DNA of 64,000 bases from an uncultured cyanobacterium. Lineage in GTDB: Bacteria > Cyanobacteriota > Cyanobacteriia > CAKZMO01. The notes under the pieces were generated by a model. It saw nothing but the letters and a program-made list of their open reading frames with translations, ran no database searches and was not told the origin of the DNA. Every line of letters starts with the position of its first letter. Positions within the stretch are counted from its first letter, which is position 1. The DNA is taken from assembly GCA_963719515.1 (NCBI GenBank), contig CAVRCJ010000003.1, positions 296,144 to 360,143 on the forward strand, read 5' to 3'. Shown here one piece after another: positions 44,932-46,365 of this stretch. Both the position numbers and the translations under genes were made by a program.

Positions 44932-45825
44932 TTACCGCGACAGCTCTATGCGCGTAGAAGTCATCAACGCTTGAACCATGGCTCGACAGAGCGCACCCTC
45001 GACGACTTGGTCAAACCGAACAAACATGGGTGAACTGTTGAGTTCTAGAAAGGCGAGCCGTTGAGTTTTTGGGTCCGTCTTAAAGTCGGCTGCTCCAAAA
45101 TCCATTCGTAGCGCCGCCATCAAGGCCCGTAGTTTCTCGACTTCAGGCTGCGGCGAGTCTAGCGGTACGAGATCTACATCCTGCTTGACGCGGTAGTCCA
45201 GAGACGGACTCTGAACCTCAAACGCAAAGGTGCGATCGCCCACCACATAAACTCGAATTTCTGGCGCAACGAGTCGATTTTGCACAATGGCCGGAGTCGC
45301 ACTACAGCCGTGGCGCGGCTGTAGCGATCGCAGCAGGTCGTCTAGGGGATAGCAAAAATCGCCCCCCGCTACAGGTTTGGCGATCGCCTCCTTGGCGTCG
45401 AACTGCGCGAGCTGCGCGGCGTCGTTGGTGATGCAGATGCTAGGAATCGTCAGGCCCTGCTGCTGAGCCAGCATGAGCAGGGCCGGCTTGTTGCCTACGG
45501 CAGTCTGCTGCTGTCGGTTGAATAGCCGGATGTCTGGCTGAGAGAGCAGCCAGCCGTACATTGCCTGGTACCAACCCGCCGATCGCTGCGCCGCTTGAGG
45601 CTTTTGGTCGTGAACGTCGTAGCGCAGGAAGGCCCCCCTCGGGGCGAGGGGCTGACCGTTTAGGGTCGCGCCACCGGACAGCCGCCAAGAGAAAGCTGGA
45701 CTCGTCTCTGGGTGATGGCGGGCGTCCCGTATCGAGATGCCCATGAGGGTGGCAACCTCTATCAGCCGGGTGAGGTTGGGGTCCGAAGCTCCCCCGGCGA
45801 TGAGTAGCGAATCTATCTGGGTCAC
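44932..45825 (-). CDS. ATP-grasp ligase, MdnC/PsnB-like graspetide (omega-ester peptide) macrocyclase
   Basis: ~297 aa with GTG start; ATP-grasp fold blocks comparable to microviridin MdnC (N-terminal leader-binding domain, IRVYVVGDRTFAFEV, DYR, LAFLELNSSPMF); start is 15 bp downstream of the precursor stop. Confidence 0.65.
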   Translation of the reverse strand: MTQIDSLLIAGGASDPNLTRLIEVATLMGISIRDARHHPETSPAFSWRLSGGATLNGQPLAPRGAFLRYDVHDQKPQAAQRSAGWYQAMYGWLLSQPDIRLFNRQQQTAVGNKPALLMLAQQQGLTIPSICITNDAAQLAQFDAKEAIAKPVAGGDFCYPLDDLLRSLQPRHGCSATPAIVQNRLVAPEIRVYVVGDRTFAFEVQSPSLDYRVKQDVDLVPLDSPQPEVEKLRALMAALRMDFGAADFKTDPKTQRLAFLELNSSPMFVRFDQVVEGALCRAMVQALMTSTRIELSR

Positions 45826-45840
45826 TGTGAGCGGGTAGCC

Positions 45841-46365
45841 TTAGTAGCGACCGAAGGGACCGCCGGGCTCTTCTTCGCCCACGGCCAGGGTGGTGACGGG
45901 ACTCTCTTCCCCCAGCGCTAGGGTCGTGAAGTCCTCTTCTCCCAAGGCACGGGTAGAGGCCACTGGACCTTCTTCCCCCAGGGCGCGGGTAGAGACTACC
46001 GGATCCTCTTCGCCTAGAGCCAGGGTAGTGATCGGCGCTGGGTCAGCGGATGCCGTTCTAAATTCAGAGGCGTGAACCGTAAGTGAATTGGTCCGTGCGG
46101 TGACAATGACGGCGTCTGCGCCGTTATCCGGGGTGATGCTGATGGAGGCAGAAATGGGGGACAGCACCTGGGGAACGATGTCCGTGGGCCGGTCGGCGTC
46201 AAAGCTAAATTCGAGAACGGCATCTCCGGGGGTGGGGTCGGCGGAGTTGTCGAGCCGAGGGTTGGTCCAGCCGGGGGTGGCGGCGAGCCCAGAGGCCTGG
46301 ATGCAAAGCATTGGAGGTTCGCCGTGCTTGATGACGGTGACTTGGGTGACCTGGAGAATTTTCAT
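45841..46365 (-). CDS. Candidate graspetide precursor peptide with ~110-aa leader and five tandem core repeats T(T/R)LALGEE(D/G/S)P
   Basis: C-terminus ...PAPI-TTLALGEEDPVVS-TRALGEEGPVAS-TRALGEEDF-TTLALGEESPV-TTLAVGEEEPGGPFGRY*; matches the plesiocin-group TTxxxxEE core motif; the repeats are visible as ~36-bp tandem DNA repeats. Confidence 0.55.
   Translation of the reverse strand: MKILQVTQVTVIKHGEPPMLCIQASGLAATPGWTNPRLDNSADPTPGDAVLEFSFDADRPTDIVPQVLSPISASISITPDNGADAVIVTARTNSLTVHASEFRTASADPAPITTLALGEEDPVVSTRALGEEGPVASTRALGEEDFTTLALGEESPVTTLAVGEEEPGGPFGRY

Follow-up and report, generated by a model that had tools for sequence, protein, structure and literature searches.

What does a small open reading frame (ORF) ending in near-identical acidic repeats make together with the ATP-grasp enzyme encoded beside it, and how would that enzyme find its substrate? 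The question is raised by a minus-strand gene pair in a 64-kb stretch of an uncultured cyanobacterial genome (contig CAVRCJ010000003.1, positions 296,144 to 360,143; hereafter the window). From its sequence and by analogy with characterized systems, we consider it likely that the pair is a two-gene graspetide (omega-ester peptide) module, in which the enzyme would install side-chain esters in a repeat-bearing precursor recruited through its C-terminal tail, giving a multi-headed serine-protease inhibitor. An initial annotation of the window had already proposed a graspetide cluster here; to that proposal we add that the precursor begins with a folded domain, ends in a conserved PFGxY tail, and belongs to a widespread family.

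The C-terminal third of the 174-residue precursor holds five tandem units, as the initial annotation had recognized, but their motif had been read out of register: the true unit is eight residues long, (S/T)T(L/R)A(L/V)GEE, and the fifth is followed by EPGG, then PFGRY, then the stop codon. In the corrected register a Ser precedes TRALGEE in the Arg-bearing units, making the full unit STRALGEE, so all five units carry two hydroxyl residues, and this Ser may act as the second nucleophile and give two rings there too. Three units fit TTxxxGEE exactly and the other two have Ser at position 1. The assignment of TTxxxxEE as the core of plesiocin-type, group 2 graspetides is borne out by the literature (10.1101/2021.03.09.434688; PMC11626197). 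In plesiocin, the inner ring (Thr32-Glu37) forms before the outer ring (Thr31-Glu38) and Gly36 contacts Arg72 of the macrocyclase PsnB; the window units keep the equivalent Gly. In a six-frame translation of the whole window, [ST]TxxxGE[ED] was found only in the precursor, and Tandem Repeats Finder reported a 33-36-nt periodicity in the repeat DNA at 69-77% identity.

The precursor architecture recurs in 169 homologues. In an alignment of 70 homologues, T114 and E119 were invariant, and T113, G118 and E120 were at least 90% conserved. We also tallied residues at each position of 1184 units from 174 proteins; G6, E7 and E8 were fixed by the search pattern used to collect these units, and their conservation is backed independently by the 70-homologue alignment. 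Position 1 was mostly Thr (T 1044, S 97, K 28), position 2 was Thr in 1144 units, position 4 was mostly Ala, and position 5 was variable and never basic. Position 3 (L 542, R 144, M 136, Q 94, F 73, K 50, Y 43) alone alternated between hydrophobic L/M/F/Y and basic R/K, and both kinds of unit were mixed in 89 of the 146 proteins having three or more units. Because it is the only position that switches in this way, and does so within so many proteins, position 3 appears to behave as expected of a P1 specificity residue. Its order across cores 1-5 of the window precursor is L-R-R-L-L. Some proteobacterial units carry Lys at position 1 (KTLALAEE, KTMAVGEE; P0068 from Rhizobium halophytocola, P0088 and P0075), where an outer lactam in place of the lactone is possible.

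The enzyme had been described as an MdnC/PsnB-like macrolactonase, with a hidden Markov model (HMM) search against graspetide models suggested as the check. In that search it scored best with TIGR04187 (E 1.7e-21; 76.7 bits against a cut-off of 350), followed by MvdD (7.5e-12; 45 bits against 475), MvdC (8.3e-10; 38 bits against 425) and the grasp-with-spasm model (9.5e-6); RimK (TIGR00768) reached only 0.0036 (16.7 bits against 143.4). TIGR04187 (GRASP_SAV_5884) is a graspetide-maturase subfamily named after the Streptomyces protein SAV_5884, whose maturases we take to be of the graspimiditide type, and the window enzyme lies far under the cut-off for this family. Among PDB chains, the only sequence matches were six graspetide macrocyclases (PsnB, CdnC, PruB, AMdnB, MdnB and MdnC); PsnB matched best (5e-12, improving to 7.8e-20 with a 39-sequence family profile), and with this profile no RimK, LysX or Ddl chain passed E 0.001. 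The AlphaFold2 (AF2) model of the enzyme had a predicted local distance difference test score (pLDDT) of 91.4. Foldseek placed PsnB at the top (E 9.7e-18, template modelling score 0.72, 21-23% identity) and the first 31 matches were all graspetide macrocyclases, including PsnB, PruB, MdnC, CdnC, AMdnB and MdnB; LysX, ArgX, RimK and Ddl ranked after them. In none of the HMM, PDB and fold comparisons, then, did the enzyme score as RimK or Ddl, the outcome that the initial annotation had named as telling against its reading.

Seven residues (R68, K113, K150, R191, D247, E261 and N263) were invariant in 39 enzyme homologues. R191 aligns with PsnB Arg213, which recognizes the ring-forming Glu, and K150 with PsnB Lys172, which contacts the nucleotide (10.1101/2021.03.09.434688; numbering in the PsnB PDB chain is native + 20). 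HMMER did not align the N-terminal third of the enzyme to PsnB. Judged by sequence and predicted fold, the enzyme is a graspetide macrocyclase, with PsnB as its closest solved relative on both counts; of the initial assignment the PsnB half stands and the MdnC half does not, and the enzyme appears to form a distinct clade that has no curated model. The group 2a signature residues and leader pocket that would group it with PsnB were not found in it. As the enzyme forms a separate clade below all curated cut-offs, group 2 membership seems to hold for the core motif only.

Enzyme homologues number more than 400, and JGI labels homologues as ‘glutathione synthase/RimK-type ligase-like’. We scanned loci from one genome per species, which gave 79 loci, and found a core-bearing ORF directly upstream of the enzyme in 60 of them. 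Taxa reached by the scan included cyanobacteria (Moorena producens 3L, Okeania, Symploca, Trichodesmium, Crocosphaera watsonii WH 8501 and Leptothoe), many Ca. Angelobacter and Aquabacterium, and also Pirellulaceae, Cerasicoccus, Ca. Thiodiazotropha, Gemmatimonadales and Devosia. Enzymes beside precursors with other N-termini were 27-64% identical to the window enzyme, and in most related loci the two genes were spaced as tightly (7-41 nt) as in the window. In seven related loci that we inspected, the precursor-enzyme pair was the sole conserved element, with no protease or transporter, and across loci from Cyanobacteria, Acidobacteria, Proteobacteria, Planctomycetes and Verrucomicrobia no other gene pair was conserved. 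The locus has two of the features by which graspetides are recognized: a macrocyclase-clade ATP-grasp beside a precursor, in a pairing kept in about 60 loci, and a fixed spacing between conserved nucleophiles (Thr/Ser/Lys) and conserved acceptors (Glu/Asp).

The region preceding the cores does not look like a leader peptide. Modelled by AF2 with 70 homologues, residues 1-103 of the precursor formed seven beta strands with pLDDT above 90, and the repeat region was modelled as disordered (pLDDT about 43), so we interpret residues 1-103 as a folded beta domain on the strength of this model. G26, L38, D48, P60 and R91 were invariant among the 70 homologues and the P18-x-L20 segment was at least 90% conserved. 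Neither the precursor nor these homologues matched Pfam or NCBIfam, and the domain had no close solved relative. The domain begins at Met1 as a beta strand, and we conclude from this that the window precursor has no signal peptide. An exhaustive HMMER search returned 331 cluster representatives related to the domain. It was found stand-alone (about 105 residues) and, without cores, as tandem arrays of 3-5 copies in predicted lipoproteins, from which it appears to be a general, uncharacterized beta-sandwich module lacking a Pfam model. Relatives of this kind include P0243, P0251, P0254, P0255 and P0269, with two to five tandem copies in predicted lipoproteins, or stand-alone. The related precursor P0081 itself matches PrcB_C (PF14343); homology of the window-type domain to PrcB_C was rejected at an hhalign probability of 0.65%. 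In a Bryobacteraceae locus (L004 7471-8004), a 177-residue coreless ORF resembling a variant, ‘type B’, N-terminal domain overlaps the precursor from upstream.

The other end of the precursor is where conservation reaches across the family. Among the 70 homologues F171 was invariant and P170 and G172 were at least 90% conserved, on par with the cross-linking residues. The C-terminus [PA][FL]Gx[YFRQ]-COOH closes 57 of the 60 precursors adjoining an enzyme, across many phyla, the exceptions being two Gemmatimonadales/Longimicrobium proteins and one truncated gene. The window precursor has a single PFG-type motif, at its extreme C-terminus. N-termini, meanwhile, vary widely: the region before the first core is at most 40 residues in 31 loci (only 9 residues in two Angelobacter peptides) and an approximately 110-residue beta domain in 22, Aquabacterium and Moraxellaceae precursors carry double-glycine (GG)-type leaders, and a PrcB_C domain is N-terminal in related precursors from the protein search, outside the 60 loci. 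Since the tail is kept in 57 of 60 precursors despite this variation, it appears to be the one element that travels with the enzyme clade, common to all precursor types regardless of the N-terminus.

Graspetide leaders share a ligase-activating motif, P-h-h-x(1,2)-h, for example PFFARFL in microviridins (PMC8939145). The key leader motif of the fuscimiditide precursor ThfA is RPFG, and this leader remains functional after transfer to the C-terminus, with modification roughly half as fast (PMC13003496). PFGRY fits this grammar yet sits naturally at the C-terminus, and the window precursor has no N-terminal leader peptide carrying a P-h-h-x-h motif within about 30 residues. Given the comparative conservation and these precedents, we propose that PFGRY is an enzyme-recognition element, a natural follower. 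When we looked for natural graspetide followers in the literature, only the engineered C-terminal placement and a dispensable microviridin C-terminal extension turned up.

Several relatives depart from the common arrangement. In Crocosphaera watsonii WH 8501 (L027 2433-3977), two ORFs that look transposase-like by eye stand in place of the N-terminal domain; what is left of the precursor ORF encodes six cores and a PFGRY tail, and the ATP-grasp gene is intact. Two Longimicrobium/Gemmatimonadales proteins of 509-514 residues (L071 2287-3831 and L073) have 380 N-terminal residues, weakly matching PAP2 (E 0.005), fused to xTxxYGEE-type cores without a PFG tail, beside a 40%-identical ATP-grasp, a possible enzyme-core fusion. 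Precursors of 57-64 residues in Ca. Angelobacter (L030, L031, L035, L037 and L044) and an Actinomycetota metagenome-assembled genome (L032) carry a single core of another type, ITTxxLxEEHPTP..GAEAPP, with the same GPFG(A/T)Y tail and enzymes about 50% identical. A Planctomycetota precursor (P0107/L009) has a twin-arginine-like signal (RRDFLRRAFMLGL...), 15 cores and no PFG tail; its partner enzyme is the most divergent one (27% identity), and the pair may represent an exported version of the system.

We can now outline how the pair may work. By homology to PsnB, the ATP-grasp would phosphorylate, at the expense of ATP, the Glu side chains in every (S/T)T-x-A-x-G-E-E unit, and Thr/Ser hydroxyls would attack the activated Glu to form side-chain esters, two per unit. 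If plesiocin is a guide, the inner ring (residues 2-7) would close first and the outer ring (residues 1-8) second, giving a bicyclic hairpin, with up to 10 esters in the whole precursor (-180 Da), or 8 (-144 Da) if the Ser residues are unused. The comparative data suggest that recruitment would proceed via the C-terminal PFGx(Y/F) tail instead of an N-terminal leader. The product would be a multi-headed standard-mechanism serine-protease inhibitor with position 3 as specificity residue, and its Leu, Arg, Arg, Leu, Leu order would combine chymotrypsin/elastase-type with trypsin-type inhibition. Plesiocin acts on elastase with a Ki of 16 nM and on chymotrypsin with a Ki of 7.5 nM and does not inhibit trypsin, and the engineered variant Psn-LLLR gains trypsin inhibition (PMC10125368); a second group 2 graspetide inhibits neutrophil elastase (PMC11626197). 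By this analogy, the window array would be a natural counterpart of the engineered bifunctional plesiocin.

As to its fate, the window precursor shows neither a signal peptide nor a GG site behind the domain, and it is not accompanied by a protease or exporter. On the simplest reading, the modified protein would remain whole in the cytoplasm. The inhibitor would probably be kept attached to the folded N-terminal domain inside the cell, which is the least certain step, and would act once cells lyse or are eaten, the mode assumed for microviridins. The modified protein might instead be an intermediate from which unlinked host proteases release the bicyclic hairpins for export as small peptides, like classical RiPPs (peptides that are made by ribosomes and modified after translation). 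Other graspetide clusters also lack proteases and may use host enzymes (10.1101/2023.06.21.545981), and the GG-type leaders of the Aquabacterium and Moraxellaceae relatives are typical of export-coupled cleavage. The window precursor, however, lacks both the GG site and a signal peptide, and none of five domain-type loci inspected has a transporter or protease; we consider release of this kind somewhat unlikely.

A number of points weigh against the module as we have drawn it. Ester formation, ring topology and inhibition are all carried over to the window pair from plesiocin, unit position 3 is presumed to match the P1 residue of the plesiocin loop, and a cytoplasmic location is unusual for a protease inhibitor. 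The enzyme scores far below every curated NCBIfam cut-off (at best 76.7 against 350 bits), has no Pfam match and is only about 21-23% identical to PsnB, for which reasons its regiochemistry could differ. Where the leader pocket of PsnB has Leu196 and Phe203, the aligned residues of the window enzyme are Cys and Val, a substitution that fits a different recognition element and does not identify which. An enzyme segment does track tail type (GGD(Y/F)CY with PFG tails, GGGLCQTL with A(F/L)G tails); we set this covariation aside as evidence for recognition, as it follows taxonomy and is confounded by phylogeny. Finally, the N-terminal domain, strongly conserved in its subfamily, could be the true docking element.

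Were this last point correct, the chemistry would be the same, the enzyme would dock on the N-terminal domain as a protein-sized leader, and the PFGxY tail would be a stability, processing or sorting signal. The five invariant residues and P18-x-L20 segment of this confidently folded domain speak for such a role, and other RiPP classes include leaders that are long and structured (PMC13003496). But 31 of the 57 tail-bearing precursors with homologous enzymes have no such domain, the domain also occurs alone and in coreless lipoprotein arrays, and it is the tail that all precursor types share, which makes docking on the domain rather unlikely. The JGI label, the fold shared with RimK and LysX/ArgX, their presence lower in the fold-search list and the activity of RimK on a Glu-rich C-terminus would all suit an amino-acid ligase of RimK/LysX type that adds residues to Glu side chains or to the C-terminal tail. 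This is very improbable given the RimK score of 16.7 bits against a cut-off of 143, the lack of any RimK, LysX or Ddl chain under E 0.001 with the family profile, and the strict spacing of paired TT nucleophiles and EE acceptors, which suits a macrocyclase and not a ligase. To the idea that the repeats are a chance low-complexity acidic tail, coincidentally next to an ATP-grasp gene, we give practically no weight: it has only the simplicity of the repeats in its favor, the motif is unique within the window, and the pairing kept in about 60 loci across phyla refutes it.

How does the graspetide module that we favor relate to characterized systems? Like plesiocin (PsnA2/PsnB of Plesiocystis pacifica), it pairs a multi-core TTxxxGEE precursor with a single ATP-grasp that keeps the equivalents of Arg213 and Lys172, and on this likeness its expected product would be a series of bicyclic hairpins acting as serine-protease inhibitors. 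PsnA2, in contrast, has four cores, not five, and a short N-terminal leader with LFIEDL where the window precursor has a 103-residue folded domain and C-terminal PFGRY; the PsnB leader-pocket residues are not kept, and two of the window cores begin with Ser and have Arg as third residue, a mixture found in plesiocin only as engineered Psn-LLLR. Group 2 clusters have LFIEDL-type N-terminal leaders and often an NHLM/PCAT-type transporter nearby (PMC13097080), neither of which is present at the window locus. Rheinheimera RcpA/RcpB, also of group 2, resembles the window pair in its TTxxxxEE-type cores and one ATP-grasp and makes an elastase inhibitor (PMC11626197), but also includes a GG leader and RcpC, an ABC transporter that contains a peptidase, both absent from the window pair. 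Fuscimiditide ThfA/ThfB shares with it the P-F-G of RPFG and a functional, engineered C-terminal placement of the leader (PMC13003496); there, however, the motif lies in an N-terminal 67-residue leader, the cores are Thr-Asp stem-loops, and an aspartimide is made by a PIMT-type methyltransferase; no methyltransferase gene adjoins the window pair.

Microviridins (MdnA/MdnB/MdnC) and the multi-core AMdnA (PMC5934393) are likewise cyanobacterial and made by ATP-grasp enzymes, with multi-core precursors known, and they are protease inhibitors stored in cells. The window pair does not belong to this group 1: it lacks the TxKxPSDx(D/E)(D/E) core with its lactam, the two ligases, the PFFARFL leader, the GNAT and the transporter. 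The initial annotation had likewise held the core to be distinct from microviridin TxKxPSDx(E/D)(D/E), and both the sequence and the MvdD and MvdC scores agree. RimK and LysX ligases share the ATP-grasp fold and rank well below graspetide macrocyclases in every comparison, and the window enzyme falls outside the RimK family. RODEO groups 34 and 35 (‘long repeat precursors’, PMC13097080), compared by their representative sequences, proved unrelated. A literature search for the core sequences gave only spurious word fragments, and the literature searched, outside which lay the two main classification papers, held no description of this architecture or of a natural C-terminal graspetide motif; the short-precursor relatives (Angelobacter, Aquabacterium) may already sit within a numbered group or a group 2 subgroup. 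Together, sequence and analogy suggest that chemistry and likely function are as in plesiocin and that precursor architecture, recognition logic and enzyme clade differ.

We hold only tentatively, as possible but short of probable, the fuller picture of a natural follower-directed system, with C-terminal PFGxY/F recognition, a beta domain in place of the leader, and a cross-linked dual-specificity inhibitor protein as product. Graspetide biosynthesis has been described as N-terminally leader-guided, with C-terminal placement only recently engineered (PMC13003496). If the follower-directed reading is true, a widespread natural family already uses the C-terminal arrangement, and the same tail logic governs an enzyme clade over at least six phyla, whose precursors range from 47-residue peptides to proteins of about 310 residues. 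The tail would then offer a short tag of about 5-7 residues, portable and usable for enzymatic macrocyclization without occupying the N-terminus. Precursors fused to a folded domain suggest that proteins as well as peptides are modified by ATP-grasp macrocyclases, and genome-mining tools with precursor-size limits may overlook such members. The natural mixes of Leu/Met/Phe and Arg/Lys units would be ready scaffolds for multi-specific protease inhibitors. Since the family is present in the bloom-forming, natural-product-rich marine cyanobacteria Moorena, Okeania, Trichodesmium and Crocosphaera, it may matter in grazing defence.

Coordinates of the precursor-enzyme pair and its parts within the window
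Feature	Position	Strand	Basis
Precursor gene, 174 aa, ATG start (beta domain, linker, five cores, tail, stop)	45841-46365	-	ORF list and sequence
ATP-grasp macrocyclase gene (by similarity), 297 aa, GTG start	44932-45825	-	HMM, PDB and fold evidence
Spacer of 15 nt, precursor TAA to ATP-grasp GTG	45826-45840	-	read in sequence
Shine-Dalgarno-like GAAGG, 8 nt 5' of precursor ATG	46374-46378	-	read in sequence
N-terminal folded domain (predicted), aa 1-103, seven beta strands	46057-46365	-	AF2 model
Core 1 TTLALGEE, aa 113-120	46006-46029	-	sequence; conservation in 70 homologues
Core 2 STRALGEE, aa 125-132, Arg at variable position 3	45970-45993	-	sequence; family statistics
Core 3 STRALGEE, aa 137-144, Arg at position 3	45934-45957	-	sequence
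Core 4 TTLALGEE, aa 147-154	45904-45927	-	sequence
Core 5 TTLAVGEE, aa 158-165	45871-45894	-	sequence
C-terminal tail PFGRY, aa 170-174, proposed ‘follower’ recognition motif	45844-45858	-	conservation in homologues

Both ORFs lie on the minus strand where the initial annotation had placed them, with the ATP-grasp gene following the precursor after 15 nt, a gap that implies a single transcript. The cluster had been called previously unannotated, and indeed both genes are called in public assemblies and unnamed in them. Also as first noted, no protease, acetyltransferase or transporter adjoins the pair in the window; its neighbors encode an MscS-type channel, QueA and a response-regulator/Hpt protein. 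The nearest named relatives of this QueA are from Elainellaceae (79%), Leptolyngbyaceae, Thermoleptolyngbya and Nodosilinea, which agrees with the cyanobacterial host first proposed and, on this sequence evidence, points to a filamentous cyanobacterium. GC content of the pair is 0.61-0.64, similar to the surrounding DNA, and its base composition gives no sign of recent horizontal transfer. Promoter and terminator scans at the locus gave counts not exceeding those of shuffles, and an Rfam scan of the window found two tRNAs only, both distant from the locus.

A perfect palindromic hairpin at 46510-46542 (15-bp stem, 3-nt loop) occupies the gap from the stop of the upstream MscS gene to the start of the precursor and is probably a transcription boundary; hairpin counts in the scan were not above those of shuffles. 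Directly 3' of the pair, 42795-44717 (-) encodes a 640-residue hybrid that combines two receiver domains with DNA-binding (OmpR-type) and Hpt domains, and whose linkage to the pair is not conserved in the other genomes inspected. Two paralogous ORFs, at 42355-42744 (+) and 49878-50264 (+), encode proteins of 129 and 128 residues that are 38% identical (E 2e-28), have no Pfam or NCBIfam match and share the C-terminus ...AIVSHGxPD...GLGYCP; they flank a block containing the graspetide pair together with the response-regulator, MscS and QueA genes.

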